This document shows positions 9,715-55,966 of a stretch of DNA of 64,000 nucleotides, in pieces. The DNA is from a virus (lineage: Duplodnaviria > Caudoviricetes): positions 1 to 64,000 of the IMG/VR virus record IMGVR_UViG_3300028832_000117. One strand, written 5' to 3'. The notes beneath the pieces are model-generated. The model did not search any database and was not told where the DNA came from. It saw only the letters and a list, made by a program, of their open reading frames with translations. The first letter of the stretch is position 1. Each line of letters begins with the position of its first letter. The position numbers and the translations under genes are program-made.

Positions 9715-10005
9715 ATGAACAAGATATACTGCATCATCCTCAGCTGGAACTACAAGAACCAGCAGGACCAGCAGAACCAGAACTTCGACATAGCCCCTGT
9801 GCGCTACCGCTCGAAGTCCGCCGCAGCCCTCTGCGCCAAGGAGACCGTGGAGGCCGAACTGAACCTCTTCTCCAAGGTGAACGAGGTCGATGCGGGAGCC
9901 TGCAAAGTAGCAAAGCACAGGACGCGCGACGTATGGACGCTCTTGGTCGCGGACGGCTCCAAGCCCTACACGTTCAGGGCCGAAGTCGTCGAATGCATCC
10001 TTTAG
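9715..10005 (+). CDS. hypothetical protein
   Basis: AAGGAG SD, 96-aa ORF with phage-typical codon bias. Confidence 0.7.
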   Translation: MNKIYCIILSWNYKNQQDQQNQNFDIAPVRYRSKSAAALCAKETVEAELNLFSKVNEVDAGACKVAKHRTRDVWTLLVADGSKPYTFRAEVVECIL

Positions 10006-10319
10006 GACGATTTTGGAGGTTCCGTGTCCGCGCCTCGCGCCGGGTTGCGTACCTGACGGCGTAGAGTGCGTTTTGATGCGTGCTCCGCAACCGTTTCAAC
10101 GGTGCGTCCAACGCCCTCACGGAATCTCCAGACGTGAGCTCCAACACGTTAACACGGGAGCAACGCATACGATCACGTGCGAAGTAGGGGGGAGGGACCG
10201 TCGTTCCCGTTGATCCCGGTGATCGCGCGAAAGCAGCAAGCCTGCGCGATAGCAGTACGGTGCAGTCAGCCACCTCGACGGCGGAGGTGCCAACTTTTTG
10301 GAAGAACAGGAGGGCATTT

Positions 10320-10496
10320 ATGGAAGAGAAGACCTTGAGGACTTGGCGGGCGATGGGCCCGTCGGGTCCTATGGAGACCGTCGCGAAGACGAGGGCGAAG
10401 GCGGAGGCCAACCTCCGCTACCGCCTCTCGTCCGAATGCGGCATGACGAAATACGCCGCGAAGTCCTACGACCTCTCGGACCTGAAGGAGGTGTAG
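10320..10496 (+). CDS. hypothetical protein
   Basis: GGAGG SD; 58 aa; abuts the next gene. Confidence 0.6.
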   Translation: MEEKTLRTWRAMGPSGPMETVAKTRAKAEANLRYRLSSECGMTKYAAKSYDLSDLKEV

Positions 10497-10497
10497 C

Positions 10498-11160
10498 ATG
10501 GCGACGAGAAACCCGTACTCCATCAGCACGGGCCAGATGTACGGAATGTACAGCTGCGGCCTCAAGTGGTGGATGAGGAACCCCGGGAAGCCCCCGGGCC
10601 CGCGTTCGTCGGATCTGCACAGGGAATGGTTCATGTCCCTGCGCTTCACCGGGATCCACAACCGGCACACCACATACTTCGGTTTCGACGACGATATGAT
10701 CGAAGAGGCCATCCTCGGCCCGCGCGGCTACCACACGATGGTGTGGAGCAGCGTGCTCGACATCCTTGTGGACAGCAAGGTGCTCGTCTTCGACGTGCGC
10801 GAAAGATCGCACTACAACGCGAACTACAACCTCACGGTGGACGAGTTCCGCGCGGATTGGACACCGCACGCCGACCTCGGTTTCCTCGGTTCCCCGTCGG
10901 AGGCCGAGTGGATGGAGCCGAGCGTGCGTCTCGGCGCGCAGCTCGAGTGGGCCGAGCACGCCCTTTCGGGAACCCCCGGCGTGCGGGTGCTCCTGGTGCG
11001 CAACCATACGCACAGGATGCCCTTCGAGTCGACGCGCCCGCCTGACGACTGGAAGAGCGCGTCGCTGCTCCTCTTCGAGCCGTGGCAGTGGGCCGCGTTC
11101 CACGCGACGCTCCATTCGCTGTGCGCACCGTATCTCGCGGGCGTGCCGTCGTTCGAGTGA
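10498..11160 (+). CDS. hypothetical protein
   Basis: AAGGAGG SD; 220 aa. Confidence 0.7.
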   Translation: MATRNPYSISTGQMYGMYSCGLKWWMRNPGKPPGPRSSDLHREWFMSLRFTGIHNRHTTYFGFDDDMIEEAILGPRGYHTMVWSSVLDILVDSKVLVFDVRERSHYNANYNLTVDEFRADWTPHADLGFLGSPSEAEWMEPSVRLGAQLEWAEHALSGTPGVRVLLVRNHTHRMPFESTRPPDDWKSASLLLFEPWQWAAFHATLHSLCAPYLAGVPSFE

Positions 11161-11733
11161 TTTCACGCCTCCTCCGCAGCAATGCCCATGGACGGGATGG
11201 AAAGTCCGTTTCGACGCGGACGGCGGAGGGTACAAGGCGTCAGGCCGGCCGGAGCCTTTCAATCCGGCAGCCGGGAAAGCCGCATTCCGATGAGGCTCTG
11301 CGGGACAACCCCAATGGCTCAAACTCCAAGATACGACCCCGAGACCGACGGGGCCGGACGGAAGGTACGCACAAGACGCCAGGAGCCCGAAGGCACCCCC
11401 GCGTCGCACGCTCTCCCTCCGGTAGCCCGGAATCCCTGTCCCGTAGGGTGGACGGTAATGCGTCCGTCGCGATCCTGTGAAGGAACGCCGGGACGGGGGT
11501 CGGTACAAGTCCGGCGGGGAAACGAGACCGGACGGGCGCCTGGAACGACGCCCACACACCATCGGAAGATCGTTGGATACCTAAGATGCGCTGCTGCCTG
11601 CTGGACGCCATGCGCCCCGCGCAGCGGAGATGCGGTTCCCTTCGAACGATGGAGGGCGGGTGAAAGTCCCGCCGCTTTGATTTCATCGACATAACCCATT
11701 CCAATCCAACCAAAGCAAAGGAGGGCAGACGAC

Positions 11734-12258
11734 ATGTTCCCCGGAACCGAATGCACGAAAGTGGCCAAAGAGGCCGTGCGAAACCACATCAAAGACATAT
11801 TCGACAGGTTGTTCTACGCGCAGGTAAGCCTCGCGAAGGAGGACGACAGATCCGAGCAGGCCGCGAAGGCCGACAAGCGCAGCTACCGCTCGTTATGCTA
11901 TTGGGACGCCCGCCACCTGTTCGATCCGCTGGTCCAGTACGTCGCTTCGGTGCTCGTGGACCTGACCATCGGATGGTTTTGGCCGTCCGGATGCGATGAT
12001 GCGGGCGACGGAATCGTGCTGTGCGGATTCGCCGACTTCTACCACGAGGAGATCCTGGAGAAGATATCCTCGATGTGCGACGACATCAAGGACTACTACG
12101 ACGACACGCAGCTTGCGACGACCTGGAGCCGCTACGACGAAGACATACGCAAATCGCTCAAAGCCTACAAGGACCTGTTGAGCCAAAGCGAAACGTACGT
12201 GTACGGAGTGGAGGACAGGAAGGCGGAGACCGGCTCCAACGGCTCTCCCGTTCTGTGA
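11734..12258 (+). CDS. hypothetical acidic protein
   Basis: AAGGAGG SD; 174 aa. Confidence 0.75.
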   Translation: MFPGTECTKVAKEAVRNHIKDIFDRLFYAQVSLAKEDDRSEQAAKADKRSYRSLCYWDARHLFDPLVQYVASVLVDLTIGWFWPSGCDDAGDGIVLCGFADFYHEEILEKISSMCDDIKDYYDDTQLATTWSRYDEDIRKSLKAYKDLLSQSETYVYGVEDRKAETGSNGSPVL

Positions 12259-13142
12259 GCCGATGCTGTTATCGATTTTTTGAAAAGGTCCGTCTCCGTT
12301 CCGGACCTGTGTTAACGAACGGACGCCGCGGCATGTGACGCCGCCTCGAGTATGCCAGACAAGGGAGCGAACCCCGAGGGGCCCAAGGGACCGGAAGGAG
12401 CGCCGGGTGCGCGTTGACGAAACGCGAACGGCACGTCTCCGGACGGTCCTTCATGGCTGGAACGCCGGGAACACATGGATCCCTCGAATGGCGGGTGCTG
12501 CAGAAGGAGCAACCCCACCGCGAAAGGGAGGGCTTCGCATATACGATGCAGCCGTGGGTCGGGATGAATACTCAAAAGACACGACCGGCAGGGCAGGCGC
12601 TGGAGAGGAAGAGGCGGAATGGCGGCCGCGGTTGAAGGAAAAAGAGCGGATCCGCGCCTTGAAGCGAGAAGGCGGATCCCCGGACCTGAACTCGGGGTCC
12701 CCATATGAAACCGGGTACGACACTGCGCTCCGCGTAAAGGAGGCACGACGTGGGGGACGACTCCCTCACAGGTGACATCTGGACCCCTTCGAGAACAAAG
12801 GAGAAGGGATCCGCTTCCGCAGGCTCACACCTCACCAAAGAGCCTGCTTTTCCGTTTTTTGAAGACACCATCCGGTATTGATTGTCGCGTTGTTCCGGGG
12901 CTACAAGGCCTGTCGACAAGTTCTCAGCGGATTGACAGTGGAACTAGCGCGGTCAGTAGGAGCCTCCCAGCAGGGCCTTTACGGTCCTTTCATGGTCCTC
13001 CGAACTTCCGGTCTACGCAGACGCCCAGGGCTCACGGCATGTTCGTAAGACGGTACGCCCCGAAGAACGCGACGCGCAATCGAAGGAGGGTTCGACTCCC
13101 TCCGGTGTCACCCTTTCCACCAACAGACAAGGAGACGACAAA

Positions 13143-13932: not shown

Positions 13933-14820
13933 ATGAGCCACCATTCGGTTGAATCGATGAAGGACGTCGCGTTCCGCAAGGGACGCAACGCCTTCAAGAA
14001 CGATGAAGAGTACCTGCGCGCATTGCACGGGGAAGAGCTGGAGGATGAGTCTTTCGAGGACGAAGAGGACGAGCCTCTCGACGAAGAGGATGAGCCTCTC
14101 GACGAAGAGGATGAGCCTCTCGACGAAGAGGATGAGCCTCTCGACGAAGAGGACGAGCCTCTCGACGAAGAGGATGAGCCTCTCGACGAAGATGAAGCCA
14201 CCAGATACTGGAGCGACTTCGAGTCGTTCCTGGACGACCTGCTGACAGACGGATCCGCCAACGCAATCAACCGTCTCTTCGACTGGGTGATCGAATACGA
14301 CGCTGGAAACAGGAACATCGGCATCTCCGTCGAGCACGGAGGCACCACTCTGCACCTGCAGCCGGATGTCGACGACGATGCTCCATACGAGCTCAAGTTC
14401 AAACTGTCCAGAGAAGGCGAAGAGGACATGACAGGCGGATACGACTTCACCGGCCTTGTCGCCTACCTGGAGCAGATTGTGGACGAGGAGGATTCTCCGT
14501 TCGTCAACATCTGCAATATGGTCGACAACGAGCTGACGACGGCGGACTTCCACGGAGACCTGGGCGGCGTGTGGAGGGGAGACATAGCGGAACACCTTGC
14601 ACATATGCCGACGAAGGCAGAGGTGGAGTGCAACCTTTTCCTCAAGTCGATGGACGGAGAGGACGAGGACGCCCATCTGGAGTTCAGGCGCAAACCGCAC
14701 CTGCCGGACGGGGACACGACCTGGGTGTTCGACGGCGAACCGTCCAAGGAACATTCGGGCAAGGGATGCCCTACCGTCCTGCTGCGATGGCTGTTGGACA
14801 ACCACAAAGGTCTGCTGTAG
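13933..14820 (+). CDS. highly acidic protein with a DEEDEPL tandem repeat
   Basis: 295 aa, AGGAGG SD, very D/E-rich throughout. Confidence 0.75.
   Translation: MSHHSVESMKDVAFRKGRNAFKNDEEYLRALHGEELEDESFEDEEDEPLDEEDEPLDEEDEPLDEEDEPLDEEDEPLDEEDEPLDEDEATRYWSDFESFLDDLLTDGSANAINRLFDWVIEYDAGNRNIGISVEHGGTTLHLQPDVDDDAPYELKFKLSREGEEDMTGGYDFTGLVAYLEQIVDEEDSPFVNICNMVDNELTTADFHGDLGGVWRGDIAEHLAHMPTKAEVECNLFLKSMDGEDEDAHLEFRRKPHLPDGDTTWVFDGEPSKEHSGKGCPTVLLRWLLDNHKGLL
14059..14184 (+). repeat. 21-bp tandem repeat x6 (VNTR, in frame)
   Basis: GACGAAGAGGA(C/T)GAGCCTCTC repeated six times. Confidence 0.95.
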
Positions 14821-15274
14821 AAAGACGATCTTCCGTCCGGAGCAAAGACCGGACGGAGACAAAAGCCATCGCATGGCAAAAAACCAAGCTGATGCGAAGT
14901 GAACGGAGCGCCGTGATGAACGGAGACCGTGCCATTTTCTGCAGTACGGCGCCTGTCTGCGTCGGTAAAGTACAACGGCCCGCTCGAAGAAGACCGGGTG
15001 GCTGTCTCAAGGCGGTGAAATTCCGCCGGATCTTGGCGGCCTTAGAATCATGACAGCAGAGACCAGACACTGCTACACCAACCCCGGCGGACATGGGGAG
15101 TCCGATAGGGGCAGGCGCCGAATCAGCCTGCAGCTATTTCAACAGTGGAAGCGGGACAGGACGCGTCTCGCGATTCCAGGATGTGCTCCTTGGTTTTGGC
15201 CTGGGGTTAGGAAGAAAGCGTCCGGTTAGACACGGCGGTAGTCCGTGCAAATCTTCAGGTGGAGGAGGACGACG

Positions 15275-15520
15275 ATGGCCAGATGCATACACGAGGTTAT
15301 GGCTCCGGTATACGACCGGTTCAGCAATCCCTTTTCCGATGGAACGGCAATGAATATCGCCGAACTCCGTTGTGTTTGCGGGTGCTTGGTATCGACGCAT
15401 CACGGAATGGAGTGCACCGATCTGGAACTGAAGATCCGATGCTCCCATTACAAACCTGAATCGGTAGTCAATCGGATGCCGAACGAAGCGGAGGACAGAC
15501 ATGAACCACCGCCCGTGTAG
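15275..15520 (+). CDS. Cys-rich mini-protein (array member 1)
   Basis: GGAGGA SD; MARCIHE...CSHYKPESVVNRMP. Confidence 0.65.
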   Translation: MARCIHEVMAPVYDRFSNPFSDGTAMNIAELRCVCGCLVSTHHGMECTDLELKIRCSHYKPESVVNRMPNEAEDRHEPPPV

Positions 15521-15806
15521 ATATGCGACCTTGACACCTCTCAACACCGACATTGTCCATGAGCTGTTGGGTGACTATTCTTTTTGGAGTCATCCTTCAT
15601 TCAAACATAGCCAAGGATGTCTGGAGCTTACGACATGTAGACACCCGGACCGATACGAGCCTGGCTTCTTTTTGTCGGCAGATTTGACTGTCGTCACACT
15701 TCGAGGGGCCGAATGCATGGTCTGTCCGATACCTGGAAGGCGTTGTCCATTCTACACGGTCCCCAGCTGTATGAACTCATTAGAGGAGGACGGACATGCC
15801 ATGTGA
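15501..15806 (+). CDS. Cys-rich mini-protein (array member 2)
   Basis: GGAGGA SD; ...CPFYTVPSCMNSL. Confidence 0.65.
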   Translation: MNHRPCRYATLTPLNTDIVHELLGDYSFWSHPSFKHSQGCLELTTCRHPDRYEPGFFLSADLTVVTLRGAECMVCPIPGRRCPFYTVPSCMNSLEEDGHAM

Positions 15807-15993
15807 CTACAGATCGTGCCGATTCCTCAGTCCGAACGAAAAGGTCTTCAGGAACTGGAACGGGCGAACGCGGTGCCTGCGGAAATGCAATGCCTACAGA
15901 AGCCCTTGGGCCGGATGCGTTAGGGAATCTTCGAGGTCGAAGGACTTCGACTGCGGACATTACCAACCGGCGTCGATGTTGAACCGCCTGTAG
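15796..15993 (+). CDS. Cys-rich mini-protein (array member 3)
   Basis: GGAGGA SD; ...CGHYQPASMLNRL. Confidence 0.65.
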   Translation: MPCDYRSCRFLSPNEKVFRNWNGRTRCLRKCNAYRSPWAGCVRESSRSKDFDCGHYQPASMLNRL

Positions 15994-16011
15994 GACCAAG
16001 GAGGTGCGATC

Positions 16012-16278
16012 ATGCCGACACGATGCGAACACGAGGTCGCGGTCCCGGTGGTGGATCCGTTCTCCCTCCCAGTCCACCGGGGAGACGACACGGCGTGGCA
16101 TCATTCCTACCACATACGCTGGATATGCAGGTGCCCGGAGGCACCGCATGCGTTCAGAATGCGCGCCAATGCGATACAAGACTGCGAACTCGGGACGGAG
16201 GAAAGCGGCTGCGAACTGCGCTGCAAATACTTCAAGACGGCCTCGGTTCCCAACCGGTTGCCTCCTGCAGCGACATAG
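16012..16278 (+). CDS. Cys-rich mini-protein (array member 4)
   Basis: GGAGAGG SD; ...CKYFKTASVPNRLP. Confidence 0.65.
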   Translation: MPTRCEHEVAVPVVDPFSLPVHRGDDTAWHHSYHIRWICRCPEAPHAFRMRANAIQDCELGTEESGCELRCKYFKTASVPNRLPPAAT

Positions 16279-16294
16279 AAAGGAGGCGCAACGA

Positions 16295-16510
16295 ATGCCG
16301 CAACGACTCAGACCGATCGAAGAGTGCCTGTATCCGTGCGTGGACGAACAGTTCATGAGTGAACCGTGCACTCCAGAGGAGCGCTCCGAATGCGCACGGT
16401 ACAGTCCGATCCAAACCCGTCTCAATGTGGAACCCGTATCCATGAGGCCGCGCCCGGACAGCGTACCCAACAAACTACCCTTCACCAACCAAACAAAGGA
16501 GAAAACATAA
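16295..16510 (+). CDS. Cys-rich mini-protein (array member 5)
   Basis: AAGGAGG SD; ...CARYSP...DSVPNKLP. Confidence 0.6.
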   Translation: MPQRLRPIEECLYPCVDEQFMSEPCTPEERSECARYSPIQTRLNVEPVSMRPRPDSVPNKLPFTNQTKEKT

Positions 16511-16511
16511 G

Positions 16512-16652
16512 ATGATAGTAAAGGTTCTTACCTACGTCATAGGAGGCGTCCTCGCGGTCGGCTTCCTGTGGTATGCGGGAAAAGTAGTGGTTGCCGGCCT
16601 CAATGCCGTCAACTCTTCACATCAAACAACAAAGAAAGGAACGAACAAGTGA
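16512..16652 (+). CDS. small membrane peptide (46 aa; not in ORF track)
   Basis: AAGGAG SD; MIVKVLTYVIGGVLAVGFLWYAGKVVVAGL...; stop overlaps the GTG of the SPFH gene. Confidence 0.55.
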   Translation: MIVKVLTYVIGGVLAVGFLWYAGKVVVAGLNAVNSSHQTTKKGTNK

Positions 16653-17956
16653 GCAGAAACGACGACGAAACAGACTTCATGAAGAGCTTCAAGGGCATGC
16701 TCTGGATGCTGGGCCTCATAGGCTTCGCGATCCTCGTGCTGTGCCTCCTGAACCTGCACCGCAACGACGTGCAGAACATACAGGTCGTGCAGTCGATCGA
16801 CGGAGACGTCGACATCAGACGCGACGGCGGATGGTACGTGATGTTCAACCCGGAGATCTGGACCTATCCCAAGGCGAGCGTCGAGATCTGCTGCATAGCG
16901 GAGAAGGACGCGATCGACATGCAGTTCTCGAACAAGTCGACGGCGAAGCTCAACTGCCAGATCGGCTACAGGATCGACTCCGCAGACGACGAGACGTTCC
17001 TCAAGCTGCACCAGCAGGTCGAGGGCGACGACGAGAAGATATGGCTGAAGGTCGTATCGACCCTGCAGACCATAACGCAGTGCATCGCGTCGCAGTACAC
17101 GCCCTCCGAGTCGGTCGAGAAGTTCGCCGAGTTCGCGCAGCGCATACGCGACGGCATCCTCCACGAGAAGTCGCTTCTCGCGGAAGGCATCGACGTCGTG
17201 TCGTTCTCGTGCGCGGGACTTCCCGAGTATGACGACGACACGAAGAAGCAGTTCGCCAAGCAGAAGGAGGCGGACCTCGCCAAGCGCCTCGCGGAGGCCG
17301 AGAAGCTGAGGCTCGAGTCCGAGAAGACCAAGGTCGAGGCGAACTACGCGATGCAGATCGCGGAGCAGAAGGGACAGGCCGAGGCCCAGATGGCCAAGGA
17401 CGTCCAGTCCGCCGAGCGAGACAAGAAGCTCGCGGAGATCGCCGCCCAGAAGCAGGTCGCCGTGCAGGAGCTCGAGAAGCAGGAGATGCTGATCAAGGCC
17501 GCCAAGGAGAAGGAGGTCGCCGAGATCGAGGCGGAGAAGCAGAAGCTCTTCGCGAGGATCGAGGCCGAGAAGGAATTGGCGGTCGCGGAGGTCGCGAAGA
17601 GGACCGAGGCGGAGAATCTGGAACGCGTAAAGCTGGAGGCCGCGCAGAAGGTAGCGCAGGCCGAAGCCAAGAAGCAGTCCATCGCCTTGGCCGGCGAGAT
17701 CACCGAAGCCGAGCGCGTCCGTCTCCAGATCGAGAAGGAGACGCGCATCGGAGTGGCGGCCGCGTATGCGCACGGCATCGGCCAGATGCGCCTTCCCGTC
17801 GTCATGACGACCGGTGGAGCCTCCGGCGGAGAAATACCGCAGGAGGGCCTCTCCGCTGCGATGAAGACGTTCTTCGACGTCAAGAACGCTGCCGCCGCGC
17901 TCGAGCTCCTCGAGCACGACGACACGACCGTCCTGCCGCAGCAGCCGCAGCAGTAA
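16649..17956 (+). CDS. SPFH/band-7 (flotillin-like) membrane protein
   Basis: N-terminal TM helix, SPFH-like core, long AE/AK-rich coiled coil, C-terminal LPVVMTTGG. Confidence 0.8.
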   Translation: MSRNDDETDFMKSFKGMLWMLGLIGFAILVLCLLNLHRNDVQNIQVVQSIDGDVDIRRDGGWYVMFNPEIWTYPKASVEICCIAEKDAIDMQFSNKSTAKLNCQIGYRIDSADDETFLKLHQQVEGDDEKIWLKVVSTLQTITQCIASQYTPSESVEKFAEFAQRIRDGILHEKSLLAEGIDVVSFSCAGLPEYDDDTKKQFAKQKEADLAKRLAEAEKLRLESEKTKVEANYAMQIAEQKGQAEAQMAKDVQSAERDKKLAEIAAQKQVAVQELEKQEMLIKAAKEKEVAEIEAEKQKLFARIEAEKELAVAEVAKRTEAENLERVKLEAAQKVAQAEAKKQSIALAGEITEAERVRLQIEKETRIGVAAAYAHGIGQMRLPVVMTTGGASGGEIPQEGLSAAMKTFFDVKNAAAALELLEHDDTTVLPQQPQQ

Positions 17957-18051
17957 CGATGTGCGCGCACCCACTGCATGGGAGATCCAGTTCCTTGGAG
18001 GGGACAACGATGCAGAGTCAGTCACGGTAGGATTTCCGTGCGACTTTTGGC

Positions 18052-18174
18052 GCCTGTGTTCAGGGGGATGGCCAAACCCCCGGCGGGACGAAGGCCGGTT
18101 CCGCTTTCCAACGGGAGGATGCCCGGAGCCGAAAGGACGGGAGATGCCAGTTCGAATCCGGCACACAGGCGCCA
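18052..18174 (+). ncRNA. tRNA-like RNA with an 8-bp acceptor stem, canonical T-loop and encoded CCA, but no decoding anticodon loop
   Basis: GCCTGTGT/ACACAGGC-G-CCA; T arm GCCAG-TTCGAAT-CCGGC; D-like arm GGGGG-ATGGCCAAA-CCCCC; three further internal hairpins. Confidence 0.55.
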
Positions 18175-18574
18175 TTACCATTGCAGATCCGCGCGGACGC
18201 GCTACACGGACGTCTTCGGTTTCCTTCTTTACTTCCCGAAGACTCCGCTCTGGACGTTTGCGACCGCCGTCGGGACCCGGCGCGCGTGGATCGGTCCCTT
18301 TCTCTGACTCTCACCGGCTGGAGAATGACCAGAGAGGACGAAGACCTAAGTCCTCCGTGTGCGACGTGGCCGGAGCGAGCCTCCAGCCGGCCGAAGCTTT
18401 CGCGCGATTTGGGCTTCGGGTTGAGCATTCTCGCCCAGCGGTCTAGGATTCGCACCATCGGGCCGACGATACGGGCCCGTTTCATATTTTCACGTCGCGC
18501 GACGGAAGACAGCTCCGGCTACGCTACTCGGCCGGTCATGATAGCTGGGGTAAAAGCCCTCAAAGAGAGCACCT

Positions 18575-18602
18575 TTGACATTTCACGCATTTTCATTATA
18601 AT
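18575..18602 (+). promoter_or_regulatory. consensus sigma70 promoter upstream of the tRNA
   Basis: TTGACA-N16-TATAAT. Confidence 0.7.
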
Positions 18603-18670
18603 GAAGATTCAGCGGCATTATATTCCTTTCATGACCATGTTCTCCGCCGAATCTTCATTATAATGAAAAT
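18589..18670. repeat. perfect 22-bp inverted-repeat pair, each copy containing the palindrome TTCATTATAATGAA
   Basis: ATTTTCATTATAATGAAGATTC (18589-18610) and GAATCTTCATTATAATGAAAAT (18649-18670). Confidence 0.9.
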
Positions 18671-18678
18671 CTTCATAT

Positions 18679-18758
18679 TGCGGAGTGGAGGAGCAATTGG
18701 CAGCTCCGCGGGCCTCATAAGCCCGAAGTTGCGGGTTCGAGTCCCGCCTCCGCTACCA
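18679..18758 (+). tRNA. tRNA with CAT anticodon (Met; initiator-like 1:72 mismatch; Ile2 not excluded)
   Basis: Acceptor TGCGGAG/CTCCGCT-A-CCA, anticodon arm CGGGC-CTCATAA-GCCCG, T arm GCGGG-TTCGAGT-CCCGC. Confidence 0.88.
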
Positions 18759-18778
18759 TTTTCAAGGAGGGCTCGCCG

Positions 18779-19051
18779 ATGGACACTAGAATAAAACCAT
18801 GCAAATGGGCGACAGGCGCCCTGGACGCCATACAACTGAAGTGGGGGAAACGCTCTACCGTCTATCGACGGTGTTGCAAAGCTCCAGGAACACAGGACAT
18901 CGGTCCATGCGTATACTGCCAGGAGAACTGGCTGCGCGCGGACAGTACGGCGATGGACGAGCTTTGCCGCGCGTACATAACCTGTCGGGGGGCCTATTCG
19001 GCAGTCAGCCCGACACTGAACCGGATAATCCCGGAACCGAAGATTTCGTAG
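18779..19051 (+). CDS. Cys-rich mini-protein (detached array member 6)
   Basis: AAGGAGG SD; MDTRIKPCKW...CRGAYSAVSPTLNRII. Confidence 0.6.
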   Translation: MDTRIKPCKWATGALDAIQLKWGKRSTVYRRCCKAPGTQDIGPCVYCQENWLRADSTAMDELCRAYITCRGAYSAVSPTLNRIIPEPKIS

Positions 19052-19349
19052 CCTGTGTGCAGGGTGGAAAGCACCGATGGTGCAATACAAGTTCCCGGCA
19101 CAGGCGACCAGACGCCTGCAAAGGCGCCCGTACGGAGTTCGATTCTCCGTCTCGTCTGGATGGCGGGCGTACGGATGTTCTGGCGTATGGACGGCGGCCC
19201 GTCCAGCGAGCACGGCGCATCCGTGTGAAAGACACGTACTCCCGGACTTCCGGCCAGGCGCAAGCCTGTCTCCGGCTGATGTGCCGTCGCGTATGATCGG
19301 AAGTCGTACGCAAACCATTTTCAACCACAAACAAGAAGGAAACAGCGAA

Positions 19350-19685
19350 ATGACCGTAAAGACACGGACCGTCGAGGAGCAGGTCGTCATATGCGACGCC
19401 TGCGGCAAGGAGATGCCGTTCTACGGCGAGTCCAAGGAAGGACGGCTGCTGGAGGCGATCGGAGACACCGGCTACACAAGACACGTGAAACCCGGTGCGA
19501 AGCGCAAAGGCAGCACGTACTCACCGGACGACTGCTGGTGCCTGTGCCATGACTGCCAGCGAAAGCTGGAGAGCGAGCACAGAAGGATAAAGAAAGAAGC
19601 GGACAGGATGCGTGATGAAGCACTGTGCCGCATGGTAAAGCAGCTTCCATCGAGGGAGGCCTCCGGCGGTTTGACTCCGTCATAG
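19350..19685 (+). CDS. zinc-finger protein (CxxC...CxxC) with a coiled-coil tail
   Basis: ICDACGKE and LCHDCQ motifs; AAGGA SD. Confidence 0.65.
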   Translation: MTVKTRTVEEQVVICDACGKEMPFYGESKEGRLLEAIGDTGYTRHVKPGAKRKGSTYSPDDCWCLCHDCQRKLESEHRRIKKEADRMRDEALCRMVKQLPSREASGGLTPS

Positions 19686-20129
19686 GGCGTCCTCGAGGCA
19701 AAACACTTCCTCAGGAAGGCCAGCGCACGGCTCGAGTGCGTGAACAATTGGACCAAGACTGGGTTCCTTGCATCTGTAAAGGTGCTACCAGGGTCCAGCG
19801 GGGTAATGGTTAGGAACATAGTCCCCGTCGCGTTGTGGCAAGTCGCGCCTTGCCTCAGGTACATGCCGGTACCTTGAACGGTAATCCGCTTACCCAGCGG
19901 TGCTTTACTGTACGGCATATTCGATTTAACCATAGGCGCAGGGTCCCGAGGACGCCTGCGTCTCCGCAGGTCATGGTCTAAGGGCCGAAAACGGCCGTGG
20001 CAAGTAATGGATTTGCATGCAGGTCCTAGGCGCCCTGCATGCTGAGCGTCCCCGGGGCGCGAGGTTCCGTTGTTCCGGGTTCGAATCCCGGTGGCCTGCG
20101 GGTTTTGATTTCACCAACAAGGAGGAGAC

Positions 20130-20495
20130 ATGGACAGAAAACTGTATCGAGTGGAGGACCCCACCGGAAAGCACGGGCTGTGGCGGGATTTCGACGGCCG
20201 GTTCAATCCGGTGTTCGACAAACTGAGCGAAGGCCTTGCACGCAGCCTGAACATGGACGATTTGCCAGCCGTATACAAGGCCGACGGCAAGTCATGGTTC
20301 GCAGCTGCTCCGACGAAGGATACGCTGAAGCACTGGTTCTCCCGCAAGGACGTCGAGGAGTTGACGGCCTTGGGCTATGGAGTGTACGAATTCACGGCGA
20401 CGAACTGCCGGGACATCTCGGACTTCGAGACGATCTTTACGCGCGAATCTGTGAAATCCGTCGTTGAACTGACAATCGACGACATATGGAACTAA
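20130..20495 (+). CDS. hypothetical protein directly upstream of the NAD operon
   Basis: AGGAGGAG SD; 121 aa; 10-nt gap to pncB. Confidence 0.75.
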   Translation: MDRKLYRVEDPTGKHGLWRDFDGRFNPVFDKLSEGLARSLNMDDLPAVYKADGKSWFAAAPTKDTLKHWFSRKDVEELTALGYGVYEFTATNCRDISDFETIFTRESVKSVVELTIDDIWN

Positions 20496-34216: not shown

Positions 34217-34411
34217 ATGCCAGCAAGACCTGAATGCCCTTTCTGCGGAAGCACCTATACGACCCTTGGGTTGTTTCCGGACCCGACCGGGATATCCACG
34301 CCCTATGCGGTTGTCTGCTACGACTGCGGGGCGCGCGGACCGACGCATCCGACCGCCGAGGGAGCGGAAGCCCATTGGGCCGAAAGGAGGCAACCCCATG
34401 GAAGTGCTTGA
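34217..34411 (+). CDS. Lar-family (restriction alleviation-like) zinc ribbon protein
   Basis: CPFCGS...VVCYDCGARGP...AEAHW. Confidence 0.7.
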   Translation: MPARPECPFCGSTYTTLGLFPDPTGISTPYAVVCYDCGARGPTHPTAEGAEAHWAERRQPHGSA

Positions 34412-47946: not shown

Positions 47947-48333
47947 ATGATACTCAACGTGATTTCGATGATCGCAGCGGCGGCAGGGTGCTTCGCTCTC
48001 GGGGCCTCCATAGGGTACCGGCGCGGGCGCATCCGCGGATACAGGGCCGGCCGTATCGCGACGTACGACGAAAAGGAGTTCCTGCCCCTGCTGCAGACGA
48101 TCCACAGATATGTGGATCTGATGCGGGAGCAGTTCACGTATGTACTGTACCGCTGCGGAGCCGACGCCCTCAATGGAGTGTCCTGCAGCGACCAGGGCTA
48201 TGTGTTCGCCGACCGCGTGATACGCATGTTGTGGTCCCGCACGGTTGGCGAGGCGGACAGGGCGTACCACGAGCTCAAGGAGAAGCGCGACGCTCTCGTG
48301 ACGTACGTGAACAAGGAGGAGCCGTTCCTGTGA
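47947..48333 (+). CDS. membrane-anchored hypothetical protein
   Basis: N-terminal TM followed by GYRRGRIRGY. Confidence 0.6.
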   Translation: MILNVISMIAAAAGCFALGASIGYRRGRIRGYRAGRIATYDEKEFLPLLQTIHRYVDLMREQFTYVLYRCGADALNGVSCSDQGYVFADRVIRMLWSRTVGEADRAYHELKEKRDALVTYVNKEEPFL

Positions 48334-48524
48334 TCAACCCGTCCATATACCCCGAACTCCCCGTGAGCTGCGGCGTGTGCAGACGCACGCTCGGGAAAGA
48401 CGAGAAGATCTACTGGCTGTGGATCCGCGCTCCATATGACTCGTGGGGGACCGGCGTGTGCCGCGCCTGCCACGAGAAGCACGGAGACGAGGCGAACATA
48501 AAGGACCTGCACCATGAAGGGTAG
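48330..48524 (+). CDS. small zinc-finger protein
   Basis: CGVC...CRACH; GTGA coupling. Confidence 0.55.
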   Translation: MINPSIYPELPVSCGVCRRTLGKDEKIYWLWIRAPYDSWGTGVCRACHEKHGDEANIKDLHHEG

Positions 48525-52693: not shown

Positions 52694-52815
52694 CGTCTCC
52701 GGGCTTGATTCTGGACGGTCGTCCGTCCAGCAGGTGCGCAGCTCCCTGCGTATGTGAACTGGTGTCATACCCGTCCAGGAACGCCGCGAGGCGGCGCCAC
52801 TTACAGGACAGGCGA

Positions 52816-52944
52816 ACGCAGTCGGGGGCGAGGCCGTACGAGTTGTTCGCGTTGTTGTTGTTGATGTTACCGCTCGTGTTGACATTCCAGACGTTGTTCA
52901 CGTTGTTGCGGTTAGGCGAACGCAGCCACAGGTTGCAAGCCGAG
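52816..52944 (-). repeat. DGR template repeat (TR)
   Basis: 129-nt AAC-rich copy of the VR; all substitutions fall at TR adenines on the coding strand. Confidence 0.95.
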
Positions 52945-53484
52945 CTCATTTAGCGTCGCACCTGTTTCGCCTCCGGAGGACTGCTCCGCCGGAGGTGAAA
53001 TCCTCTTCAGCGCGGCGTCGAGGAGAGGGGTCTCGGACGGCGCGTCCTTCGGGTGCGCCAGCTCTCCGTATCTTTCGACGTCGCACTTGTGCCAGGCCTT
53101 CAACTTGTTGGAGACCTTGACGAACATGTCCATCCAGTACCAGAACTTCTTGGAGTCCAGGCGGAACTGGGGCTTGACCAGGTCGAAGTACGCCTCCAGG
53201 ACGTCGCACGACGTTATGGCTTCGTCCTGGAGGGCCAGGCGCTCATGGGCGCGCCAGGGCTCCTTGGTCACGTTGATCCTGTTTGCGGCCCGCGCCGACA
53301 CGTACACGTGCAGGAGTTCCCTCTGGATGAGGTAGAGGGTCTCGTTGTGGAAATCGTCCGCCGGATTGAAGTGCTTGGGGTTCCCCATGATCCGCACGGA
53401 GTGTATGTAGAGGTTCCGTGCGTCGATCAGCACCTGGAGCGGCGTTTCGTTCCAGTCCCTTGCGTGTTTCGTGCCCTTGCCCAT
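52912..53484 (-). CDS. avd: DGR accessory variability determinant (Avd-like four-helix bundle)
   Basis: Position between target and TR; AANRI, ERLALQDEA, KLKAWHK-type motifs. Confidence 0.85.
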   Translation of the reverse strand: MGKGTKHARDWNETPLQVLIDARNLYIHSVRIMGNPKHFNPADDFHNETLYLIQRELLHVYVSARAANRINVTKEPWRAHERLALQDEAITSCDVLEAYFDLVKPQFRLDSKKFWYWMDMFVKVSNKLKAWHKCDVERYGELAHPKDAPSETPLLDAALKRISPPAEQSSGGETGATLNELGLQPVAAFA

Positions 53485-53499
53485 GGTGGCCTTTCATTT

Positions 53500-53527
53500 A
53501 TCCCCCTCGCGCAAGCGCTCGGGGGAT
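53500..53527. promoter_or_regulatory. GC-rich hairpin downstream of VR/IMH (DGR target-recognition element)
   Basis: ATCCCCC-TC-GCGC-AA-GCGC-TC-GGGGGAT, 12 nt past the target stop. Confidence 0.65.
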
Positions 53528-53539
53528 TTTCCTTTTGGA

Positions 53540-55966
53540 TTAGTAGATGACGCAGGCGGGGGCGAGGCCGTACGAGTTGCTCGCGACGTTGTAGCTGCTG
53601 ATGCTACCGCCCGTGCCGACATACCAGACGTGGCTCACGACGCTGCGGCTAGGCGAACGCAGCCACAGGGTGCAAGCCGAGGTCTTTGCCGTCTGCCTGT
53701 ACTGGATACGCGCGGTGGACGCGTTGTTGTTCGCGGCCGCGTTGTCCATCGCAGCCACCCAGAAGGAGTCCGCGGTGTTCTCGTTGTCGTTCACGCTGCC
53801 GTTCATCTCGGCCCCCGAGTCGAGGAAGAACTTGTCCACGGTCGTCACGATGTCCGCCTGGCCGGAGTAGCACTGGACCTGCACCGGCTGGATGTAGTCG
53901 AGCAGGGCCGACGTGCAGCCCGCCATGTAGCCGCGGGTCGTCGAGAGCTGCGACGGGGCGACGTCGCCGGCGTGCTGCGACGTCCACCAGCCTCCGAGCT
54001 CCGAGGCGGACGAGTTGATGTACTGGCGGACGGCCGAGTGGTCGTAGCGGTTGGAGCCGTACGAGAACGCGTCCCTTGCGTTGTATGCAAGCCCGTGCTT
54101 GTAGATCTCGAGGTAGCCGGAGTACGGGAGCGACTGCCCGGCGGAGAGGCCGAGCCACACCAGCGAGCCCTTGACCATCGTCGCCTGCACCGCAAAGTGC
54201 TCGGAGTCGTTGTCCGGCGTCGTGGAGTCGGCCGTGGACTTGGCGAGGATGCACTTGTACGCGACGCCGTCGTACGAGCAGTACGAGTTGAGCGCGTAGG
54301 TCTTCGACGCGTCGAACGCGGCGGCCCAGCCGTAGTAGCCGAGCCCGGACTCCGCGGTCGTCTCGGTGGACGAGTCGCAGAGGACGGGCGACTCGGCCGC
54401 GTCGAACTGCATGTCGTACGTCGCGTACTTGCGGCGCAGCTTGACGCCGAGATGCGAGTTGCCGTCGGCGTCCTTGTAGTTCTTGACGTCCACGACGACC
54501 ATCGGGTTCGTGATGACGGTCGTGCCGTTGTCGGACGTCCAGGTGTCCTCGATCTCCTTGCCGAGGATCGCGGTCTTCGCGTCGGCGGCCGTCATGCCTT
54601 CCTGGCGGATGAAGCCCTGGATGCCGGCGAAGTCCGTGATGGACGAGGCGTCCTGGTACGTCAGCGTCACGAACGTGTTGGCGTTCGCGTTGCCGTGCGC
54701 CGTGGAGGGCGAGAAGTGCCCTGCGAGCGTCGAGGTGATCTGGACGAAGTACTCGGTGCCGCGGGGGACGAGGAAGCTCACGGGCTGGCCTTCGTACGAC
54801 GCGGTCTCGCGCAGCGTGCCGGTCGACGCGTCCGCGCCCTCGTAGAGGCTCACGGTCTGTCCGGTCACGGTCACGCCGTCCGCGGTCGTCGCGGAGACGA
54901 CGATCGTGACGTACGCGTCCACGGCCTTGGAGAGGGCATTCGCGATCGTCTGCGACGCGTCGTACACCCCGATGTAGAGCTTGCCCGTCACCGCGTCGGC
55001 GATGCGGACGACTCCGGCCGTCGTGTCGATGAAGATGGTGCAGAGGTACAGCATCGGGGACGACTCGATCGCCGAGACGTCGAACTGGACGTGCTGGCCC
55101 TGGTCGTTTATCGTGTTGAGGCGGGCGAGTATGGACGCCATCGTCTCCGTCGGCTCGGTGAGCTTCACGATGGTCGTGAAGTCCGTGGATAGCTTCATCG
55201 CGGTCCAGTGCGTCGTGTCCTCGTCGGGCGTCGCCGTGTTGGCCGCCGTCACCGCCGCCTTGCAGCGGTAGAGCTTGCCTTCATGGCGCACGATCTTGTC
55301 AACGGCGTACGCGGTCGTCTTGGCGAAGTCGACCGCCTGCCCGGCGGAGTCGAGCTTGCCGGTCAGCTGGTCGGAGACGTCGATCGCGTCGATCGCGGAC
55401 CAGACCGCGCCGGACGTCACGAGCGCCGTCGAGTTCTCCGTCACGGAGGTCGTGATGGATTTGCCGGAGTCCGAAAGATGCCCGGTGGCTGTGAGGGTTG
55501 CCACATTTCCTGCAGCGGACGGTACCGCCTTATCGGCCTTCCTGGCGAGCTCCGCGTAGGCGCCGCCGGTCGTGAACTTCGTAGTGCCGTTCTCGGCCGG
55601 TGTCGCGCTGTCGCCCGTGTTCACCACGTTGGCGAGGCCGACATCGGTCTTGGTGAGCGTGACGGCGCCGGTCCTTCCGGCGACGGACGTGACCGCGGCG
55701 GTCGGGACGACCACCTCCACGTACTTGGCGGACTCTTCGTCGTACTTGTACGTCTTGCCGGTCTCGTCCGAGCGGTAGTACCTGCTGGGGTCGCCGGGCT
55801 TAGGAAAATCGTCCTTGGACTCGTAGTTGAGGACGTCGGTCACCTGGCCGGGGACCTGCTCGTCCGGGACGGTCCCCTCGGGGGAGAGCGTGGCGTAGGC
55901 CTGCTCGGCCCTGCGGCGCAGGTCCTTGTCCGTAAGGGTAAGCACGTTTGTCTGCTTCAGCGTCAT
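53540..55966 (-). CDS. DGR target: tail fibre / receptor-binding protein with a C-terminal C-type-lectin-like variable domain
   Basis: VTSVAGRTGAVTL fibre motif, two small CBM12-like modules, WLRSP...GLAPAC VR. Confidence 0.88.
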   Translation of the reverse strand: MTLKQTNVLTLTDKDLRRRAEQAYATLSPEGTVPDEQVPGQVTDVLNYESKDDFPKPGDPSRYYRSDETGKTYKYDEESAKYVEVVVPTAAVTSVAGRTGAVTLTKTDVGLANVVNTGDSATPAENGTTKFTTGGAYAELARKADKAVPSAAGNVATLTATGHLSDSGKSITTSVTENSTALVTSGAVWSAIDAIDVSDQLTGKLDSAGQAVDFAKTTAYAVDKIVRHEGKLYRCKAAVTAANTATPDEDTTHWTAMKLSTDFTTIVKLTEPTETMASILARLNTINDQGQHVQFDVSAIESSPMLYLCTIFIDTTAGVVRIADAVTGKLYIGVYDASQTIANALSKAVDAYVTIVVSATTADGVTVTGQTVSLYEGADASTGTLRETASYEGQPVSFLVPRGTEYFVQITSTLAGHFSPSTAHGNANANTFVTLTYQDASSITDFAGIQGFIRQEGMTAADAKTAILGKEIEDTWTSDNGTTVITNPMVVVDVKNYKDADGNSHLGVKLRRKYATYDMQFDAAESPVLCDSSTETTAESGLGYYGWAAAFDASKTYALNSYCSYDGVAYKCILAKSTADSTTPDNDSEHFAVQATMVKGSLVWLGLSAGQSLPYSGYLEIYKHGLAYNARDAFSYGSNRYDHSAVRQYINSSASELGGWWTSQHAGDVAPSQLSTTRGYMAGCTSALLDYIQPVQVQCYSGQADIVTTVDKFFLDSGAEMNGSVNDNENTADSFWVAAMDNAAANNNASTARIQYRQTAKTSACTLWLRSPSRSVVSHVWYVGTGGSISSYNVASNSYGLAPACVIY
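53550..53681 (-). repeat. DGR variable repeat (VR)
   Basis: 132 nt encoding SACTLWLRSPSRSVVSHVWYVGTGGSISSYNVASNSYGLAPAC at the target C-terminus. Confidence 0.95.

Follow-up and report, generated by a model that had tools for sequence, protein, structure and literature searches.

Why should a phage carry, side by side, several small cysteine-rich proteins that differ in most of their sequence and yet end alike? This question is raised by positions 15275 to 19051 of a 64,000-nucleotide stretch of viral DNA (Caudoviricetes), hereafter the window, which is the first 64 kb of the 98,311-bp virus record IMGVR_UViG_3300028832_000117, a genome rated complete by CheckV. A first-pass annotation, made from the letters of the window, had pointed there to a run of five consecutive open reading frames (ORFs) and a sixth farther downstream, each led by a Shine-Dalgarno (SD) sequence, and had proposed that they encode one paralogous metal-binding scaffold with hypervariable loops between the cysteines and a constant docking tail at the C-terminus. 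We conclude that at least four of the six ORFs are very probably paralogues of one new family of small Cys-rich proteins. As to what they do, we propose that they form a panel of small binder proteins with a shared C-terminal handle, a model that, taken as a whole, may well be right but to which we assign slightly less than an even chance.

The description of the ORFs in the first-pass annotation was accurate in its coordinates, SD sites, lengths of 65 to 101 amino acids (aa), N-terminal cysteines, and all six quoted C-terminal ends, except that the fifth ORF, although present, starts at 16295 and not at 16296. All six lie on the + strand. Member 1 (P0001, 81 aa, 15275..15520) has conserved cysteines at positions 4, 35, 47, and 56, the last of which begins the tail, and 12 orthologues or relatives; within its last ~12 codons lie the start and the ribosome-binding site of member 2 (P0002, 101 aa, 15501..15806), which has seven orthologues and conserved cysteines at positions 6, 46, 72, 75, 82, and 90. 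Member 3 (P0003, 65 aa, 15796..15993; orthologues P0012 and P0016) is a basic protein with six conserved cysteines that stops exactly at the N-R-L of its tail. Member 4 (P0004, 88 aa, 16012..16278; orthologues P0008 and P0036) is the closest paralogue of member 1, with 42% identity and a phmmer E value of 1e-7. Member 5 (P0006, 71 aa, 16295..16510; orthologues P0021 and P0022) has cysteines at positions 11, 15, 25, and 33, followed by a variable linker and an invariant tail. The doubtful sixth member (P0005, 90 aa, 18779..19051), also basic, is a conserved gene of loosely family-like appearance, with seven orthologues that include P0040 (57% identity). Cysteine makes up 5.6–9.2% of the residues in the six proteins versus 1.0–1.6% in the neighbouring enzymes.

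Orthologues were gathered by searching 5.8 billion clustered proteins with a profile, by cluster look-ups, and by an exhaustive hidden Markov model (HMM) search, and were sorted into groups numbered after the six members. Each ORF has orthologues in ENA and Logan metagenome assemblies, at 45–97% identity to the window copy, and these retain the start, the stop, and the length class. We judge the six ORFs to be real genes because each has length-matched orthologues in which insertions and deletions remain in frame. Short contigs of equal size recurred among the matches to different groups: a length of 1,590 bp was common to groups 1, 2, and 3, one of 1,501 bp to groups 2, 3, and 5, and one of 3,323 bp to groups 2 and 4. 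This coincidence of contig sizes in the match tables suggests that several paralogues share contigs and that the array is syntenic in relatives. Some orthologues come from longer contigs, P0015 from one of 27.9 kb, P0032 from one of 79.5 kb, and P0040 from one of 13.4 kb.

Relatedness among the six was assayed with one alignment per orthologue group, the groups being compared by hhalign. Group 1 (15275) matched group 4 (16012) at E 1e-13 over ~70 columns and group 3 (15796) at E 1.5e-5 over the tail, and groups 1, 3, and 4 pooled matched group 5 (16295) at E 2e-4 (range to 1e-3), with confident alignment in the tail columns only. Group 2 (15501) reached E 0.02–0.04 against the core; group 6 (18779) reached E 0.01 against group 2 but gave no signal against groups 1, 3, 4, or 5. 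HMMs from which one group at a time had been left out were then run against the 1,185 ORFs of the six-frame set of the 98-kb genome, which served as background for both the HMM and the motif tests. The omitted groups 1, 3, and 4 ranked first (E 9e-6, 3e-3, and 1e-6, respectively) and group 5 ranked third (E 0.7), while neither group 2 nor group 6 was recovered.

For the motif tests we used the strict pattern C-x2-[YF]-x3-S-x2-N-x-[LMI], in which Cys is followed by Tyr or Phe (+3), Ser (+7), Asn (+10), and Leu, Met, or Ile (+12), and which is composed only of columns that are invariant in groups 1, 3, and 4. It was found in exactly four of the 1,185 ORFs, the adjacent members 1 to 4, against 0.015 expected from residue shuffles; the tail of member 2 has the exact core spacing, but carries Ser at the Arg/Lys position. 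A looser pattern, which was fitted post hoc, matched exactly the six ORFs genome-wide against 0.06–0.23 expected. In 18779 the Cys-to-Tyr and Ser-to-Asn spacings are each longer by one residue, and the tail Ser is not conserved in P0040, its most distant orthologue. Member 2 and 18779 do have in common an N-terminal stretch, P-C-[KR]-[YW]-A-T, and a central one, [FW]-L-x-A-D-x-T.

On these comparisons members 1, 3, 4, and 5 can be regarded as secure members of the family, and member 2 is accepted as a likely one on the strength of its motif and its position inside the array. The membership of 18779, for which the stretches shared with member 2 are the sole link, appears doubtful. The single family of six that had been claimed at first was thus upheld for 15275, 15796, and 16012, for 16295 in its tail, and for 15501 at the level of the motif, whereas 18779 had only its match to 15501 at E 0.01. 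Likewise, the shared tail as a pattern of the array lies far beyond chance in the tandem block, and its spacing is shifted in 18779.

What the members share is a frame, which was evident in an alignment of 21 sequences as a Cys preceded by a basic residue in the first 4–11 positions, a central Cys, Gly-x(0-2)-Cys, and a last Cys-x2-Tyr/Phe leading into the tail. One Cys column was invariant and two were nearly so, which together with the N-terminal Cys gives four conserved cysteines; the tail consensus is S-x2-N-[RK]-[LMI], frequently followed by Pro. When conservation within orthologue groups was measured by deciles, as mean column frequency, the tail decile was the best conserved part: it reached 1.00 for group 5, 0.97 for group 4, and 0.83 for the 13 sequences of group 1. 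Second came the N-terminus, and the loops were least conserved (0.47–0.63) and were the location of the length changes. A paralogous Cys-rich family with constant termini and variable loops is supported for at least four, or five, of the ORFs. That the loops are unrelated to one another is correct only in part, given the 42% overall identity of 15275 and 16012 and the stretches mentioned above for 15501 and 18779. Two features of spacing bear on the nature of the tail. In group 5 a linker of 16–22 residues, variable in both sequence and length, lies between the last Cys-x2-Tyr and the invariant tail, an arrangement that, as read from the alignment, fits a tethered linear motif. In members 1 to 4 and all of their orthologues, Tyr (+3), Ser (+7), and Asn (+10) always stand at the same distance from the Cys.

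We also considered the tail as an RNA or DNA element placed before the next ribosome-binding site, and rejected it. No DNA-level repeat was found among the paralogues, and the codons differ, being synonymous or non-interconvertible: for the invariant tail Ser three copies have TCG and two have AGC, and the Leu/Met position is encoded by ATG, CTG, TTG, TTA, and CTA. Because there is no DNA repeat and the codons differ, selection on the tail acts on the protein and not on RNA or DNA. Beyond the tail, the extensions of members 1 and 2 resemble each other (window positions 15482–15520 and 15779–15806; GAGGAGGAC-R-GACATG). This likeness arises because both extensions are the in-frame reading of the ribosome-binding site and ATG of the downstream gene; in these extensions it is the gene overlap that dictates the protein sequence.

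Searches for relatives outside the window gave a consistent picture. In the exhaustive HMM search, which covered 1.84 billion representative proteins, nine matches were obtained, eight of which belonged to this phage clade. The ninth, P0038, a eukaryote-like coiled-coil repeat protein of 1,065 aa, was rejected as spurious, having matched through a chance string similar to the tail. No member matched Pfam, PHROGs, or NCBIfam at E up to 1–10; a profile search of PDB sequences gave only a chance match (E 2.2); and the ESM Atlas held no usable neighbour of P0001 or P0005. A tblastn search of 50,697 GenBank phages detected no family member, nor did scans of IMG/VR with a single protein and with alignments, and a literature search returned nothing relevant. 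Pfam, PHROGs, the PDB sequences, the GenBank phages, and the ESM Atlas likewise linked no member to a known anti-defence protein such as an anti-CRISPR or anti-restriction protein. Joint Genome Institute (JGI) metagenomes yielded only a near-identical copy of part of the window, a 2.4-kb contig (Ga0310690_10181831) with 99.2% identity to positions 17765–20165. Twelve of its 20 differences fall in the 3' end of a neighbouring gene (17769–17839; the SPFH gene described below) and two more are a CC insertion directly past a tRNA-Met gene; within the sixth ORF there are none. In these searches the family was limited to a narrow clade of uncultured high-GC phages, and it has no known relatives.

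One GTDB match deserves separate mention. On contig CALCHI010000473.1 of a metagenome-assembled genome (Planctomycetaceae), positions 2720–2794 fall in the gene for a membrane protein of 652 aa whose C-terminal domain is DUF4129, and just upstream of that domain ten residues, F-S-N-P-F-S-D-G-T-A, are identical to P0001. We rejected this protein as a homologue, as tens of chance matches are estimated for the pattern in 596 Gb; the string was judged a chance product, although it could be a short shared motif.

The origin of the family by tandem duplication, its restriction to one lineage, its four-Cys frame, and its conserved termini with variable loops can be taken as established. The explanation that we propose for the array begins with the five genes at 15275–16510 being old tandem duplicates of one small cytoplasmic protein, of which 18779 may be a sixth copy. 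In each copy the four-Cys frame would probably hold one structural metal ion, most likely as Zn(Cys)4, which is the usual explanation for four conserved cysteines in small cytoplasmic proteins. The genes would be expressed early, as accessory proteins, to judge from their position, their packing, the ORFan neighbourhood, and the sigma-70 promoter before the sixth ORF, and the panel would serve to take over the host or to counter its defences. Each copy would recognise a target of its own through its loops, and all copies would be held by one partner, of the host or of the phage, through the tail that they share as a handle. Metal binding, early expression, binder function, and the shared partner are all steps that we infer.

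Several observations weigh against this explanation. The cysteines are unpaired and variably spaced, and most members have no CxxC knuckles, which makes the metal less certain; zinc binding here is a prior only. Members 2 and 6 fail the profile-based tests. Mean predicted local distance difference test (pLDDT) scores from AlphaFold2 were 54.7 for P0001 (21-row alignment) and 37.2 for P0002 (15 rows), too low for a fold to be inferred. The first-pass annotation had tied the common scaffold to a common predicted fold and to significant profile-profile similarity among the six; the similarity was found in a subset of them, and a usable predicted fold was not. The fixed spacing between Cys and tail in members 1 to 4 would also fit a tail that is part of the fold. 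G+C content at third codon positions (GC3) is 0.54–0.73 in the six genes, well below the 0.82–0.91 of conserved phage genes from this block (SPFH, pncB, and nadD-like), and the low values fit fast turnover or weak selection; the 14–16 kb segment, with a GC content of 0.564, is the second-lowest in the window.

The main alternative for the tail is that the genes are a plain paralogue family with no common partner, each copy acting alone on its own target, and that the tail is the last structural element of a metal-stabilised fold and packs on the core. The fixed Cys/Tyr/Ser/Asn spacing in members 1 to 4 and their orthologues agrees with this. So does the position of the tail in the protein: since the post-tail residues are by-products of the start of the next gene, the domain truly ends with the tail, which is also where member 3 stops. 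A rigid core element, however, would seldom tolerate a variable 16–22-residue linker such as that of member 5 in front of a 100% conserved tail, and tail residues 63–70 were the lowest in confidence in the weak model of P0001. We therefore regard a purely structural tail as unlikely, if not greatly so; the tail of member 5, which is separable and invariant, and the ending of member 3 at its tail favour a shared handle over a core element. A different doubt concerns membership, for 18779, and less probably 15501, might be unrelated Cys-rich proteins whose likeness to the tail is due to chance. The profile comparisons, in which 18779 had no signal against four of the groups and only E 0.01 against member 2, speak for this, as do its shifted spacings and the loss of the Ser in P0040; moreover, the pattern that includes 18779 was fitted after the fact, and the coiled-coil protein P0038 shows that a similar string can arise by chance and match the family HMM. 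Against it, member 2 lies inside the array and has the exact five-position motif (0.015 expected), 18779 shares N-terminal and central stretches with member 2, and the loose motif matches nothing else in the genome. Chance likeness is a distinct possibility for 18779, although we hold it to be the less probable outcome.

The remaining alternatives concern the cysteines and the general form of the array. Instead of holding structural zinc, the four cysteines might be ligands of an iron-sulfur cluster or might work as switches of the redox or disulfide type, which would make the members small redox or sensor proteins. Single cysteines at long and variable spacing, with few CxxC pairs, are odd for zinc fingers and known in some iron-sulfur proteins. 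Cluster motifs, on the other hand, would rarely allow the number of residues between the last two cysteines to vary from 3 to 11 across paralogues, and neither Pfam nor NCBIfam contained a WhiB or other iron-sulfur family that matched. The WhiB-like (Wbl) proteins of actinobacteria and their phages are also small, have four conserved cysteines, and occur in high-GC phages; we rejected this class after finding no Pfam match at E up to 10 (PF02467) and neither C-x2-C-x5-C nor G-[VI]-W-G-G in the alignments. A redox role of this kind seems improbable. Tandem, small, Cys-rich proteins with constant ends and a variable middle also have the superficial look of an array of precursors of ribosomally synthesized and post-translationally modified peptides (RiPPs), with the conserved ends for maturase recognition and the Cys-rich middle as core. 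At 65–101 aa they are long for such precursors; searches with positive controls found neither radical SAM (PF04055) nor YcaO (PF02624) domains in the 98-kb genome, and no maturase or transporter family was found among the neighbours, so that, a host-encoded maturase aside, we rejected this class and consider it hardly credible. Lastly, the conserved ends might be a sorting signal for loading into the virion and injection, with the variable part as an anti-host payload, in the manner of the T4 internal proteins. The T4-like loci (IPI, IPII, IPIII, and relatives) encode small, fast-diverging proteins that share a capsid-targeting sequence, and at least one of them, IPI, acts in anti-defence. The array resembles them in logic only, as a constant short terminus joined to a variable rest, with no sequence similarity. 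In T4 the constant part is a cleaved N-terminal signal and the genes are late, whereas in the array both termini and the Cys frame are constant and the block looks early. The array is surrounded by early or accessory genes and is far from the genes for terminase and virion proteins, one of the six genes is behind a host-type consensus promoter, and no site of the prohead-protease type was identified. Virion loading accordingly has a very slim chance of being correct.

The binder panel that we prefer was also compared with other known classes. Members 1, 3, 4, and 5 have no conserved CxxC pair, members 2 and 6 have one each, and none of the six matched a curated model of the classical zinc ribbon or finger. 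The genome does encode three ordinary zinc-ribbon-like ORFs with paired knuckles (34217–34411, 48330–48524, and 19350–19685). These, like P2 Ogr, P4 Delta, and Mu Com, are phage-encoded, shorter than 110 aa, have at least four conserved cysteines and no other recognisable domain, and are presumed to be metal-stabilised, all of which is true of the array proteins. The Ogr, Delta, and Com type, however, has two CxxC or CxxxxC knuckles, whereas the array family has mostly single cysteines 3–30 residues apart and the additional tail. As variable proteins of a diversity-generating retroelement the members were rejected, because the array and the sixth ORF, when compared by blastn-short with the template/variable repeat region at 52700–53750, gave only chance matches of 8–15 nucleotides (nt). 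Tandem families of small ORFan proteins are familiar in phage accessory regions, and we know of no described phage family with a conserved frame, variable loops, and a constant tail.

The boldest form of the proposal is an adaptor panel, in which the loops would grasp different host proteins and the S-x2-N-[RK]-[LM]-P tail would deliver these targets to one machine of the host or the phage, which might be a protease, the phage RNA polymerase, or the membrane scaffold formed by the co-transcribed SPFH protein. Adaptor panels with one docking motif, such as those of the SspB type on ClpX, and viral families of small paralogous host-modulating proteins follow the same proposed logic of variable recognition with a constant docking peptide. 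The comparison is pure analogy; the tail has no likeness to any docking motif known to us, and we think delivery to a single machine improbable.

The surroundings of the array bear on its presumed early, accessory role. The + strand block to which it belongs starts near 8–9.4 kb, opposite a terminase gene on the - strand, and the proteins around the array are almost all ORFans by Pfam and PHROGs. Between positions 14821 and 15274, the ~450 nt upstream of the array, we found no credible ORF led by a ribosome-binding site and no sigma-70-like promoter, and between 11673 and 20994 no terminator-like site was found on the + strand. Each of the six ORFs has a GGAGG-type ribosome-binding site 6–8 nt before its ATG. 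Members 1 to 5 overlap by 20 and 11 nt and are then separated by gaps of 18 and 16 nt, and a gap of 1 nt follows member 5; such tight packing of the five genes would be an arrangement for coupled translation. Directly after member 5 comes the gene for a 46-aa single-pass membrane protein (16512..16652, +), which overlaps the start of the gene at the end of the string, for an SPFH/Band-7-like protein (16648..17956, +; PF01145 at E 2.6e-4, below the curated cut-off; phrog_11908 at E 7e-19). The sixth ORF stands apart, 2.3 kb downstream of the five-gene array. It is preceded by a sigma-70 promoter of perfect consensus (12/12 positions; 18575..18602, +), which lies within a 27-nt inverted repeat, and by a tRNA-Met gene with anticodon CAT (18679..18758, +; ARAGORN; Rfam RF00005, 44.3 bits), which ends 20 nt upstream of the ORF.

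A related phage (IMGVR_UViG_3300001598_000039) allowed the array to be placed in relation to its neighbours. It retains the pair of genes for the membrane protein and the SPFH protein (9746–11227 of that record), the small membrane protein having its counterpart before an SPFH gene whose product is 64% identical to that of the window; a gene for a full-length DnaJ follows (11326–12507). At the place of the array, in contrast, it has YqeY and DUF2828/DUF7788 genes, the genes upstream of the pair are wholly different, and no family member was found in the 88 kb of it that were covered. Because this phage keeps the pair and replaces the array, we conclude that the array sits in a variable accessory slot.

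Two further features of the region were noted. The gene that ends ~450 nt upstream of the array (13933–14820) encodes an extremely acidic protein of 295 aa (net charge about -67) without a family match, in which six tandem 21-nt repeats encode D-E-E-D-E-P-L; a role as a polyanionic decoy or in DNA mimicry is possible for it. Around the sixth ORF there are three intergenic T-arm-like segments, GGTTCGA(A/G)TCC, at 18138–18161, 18723–18746, and 20067–20090. One of them is the real T arm of the tRNA-Met, which is the only one to pass ARAGORN and Rfam.

Small ORFan genes in the accessory regions of phages are the main reservoir of undiscovered proteins for host takeover and counter-defence, but most of them are singletons that cannot be prioritised. 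Here the residues of the frame, the variable surface, and the constant tail can be told apart, since the phage has five or six copies that have diverged and about 40 orthologues are available for comparison. If the tail is not a docking peptide, the array would be one more lineage-specific set of small metal-binding proteins, of modest interest. If it is, it would point to a hub, in the host or in the phage, that this clade exploits, and an adaptor panel, if that proved true, would be the bacterial-virus counterpart of the adaptors by which animal viruses use degradation hubs.

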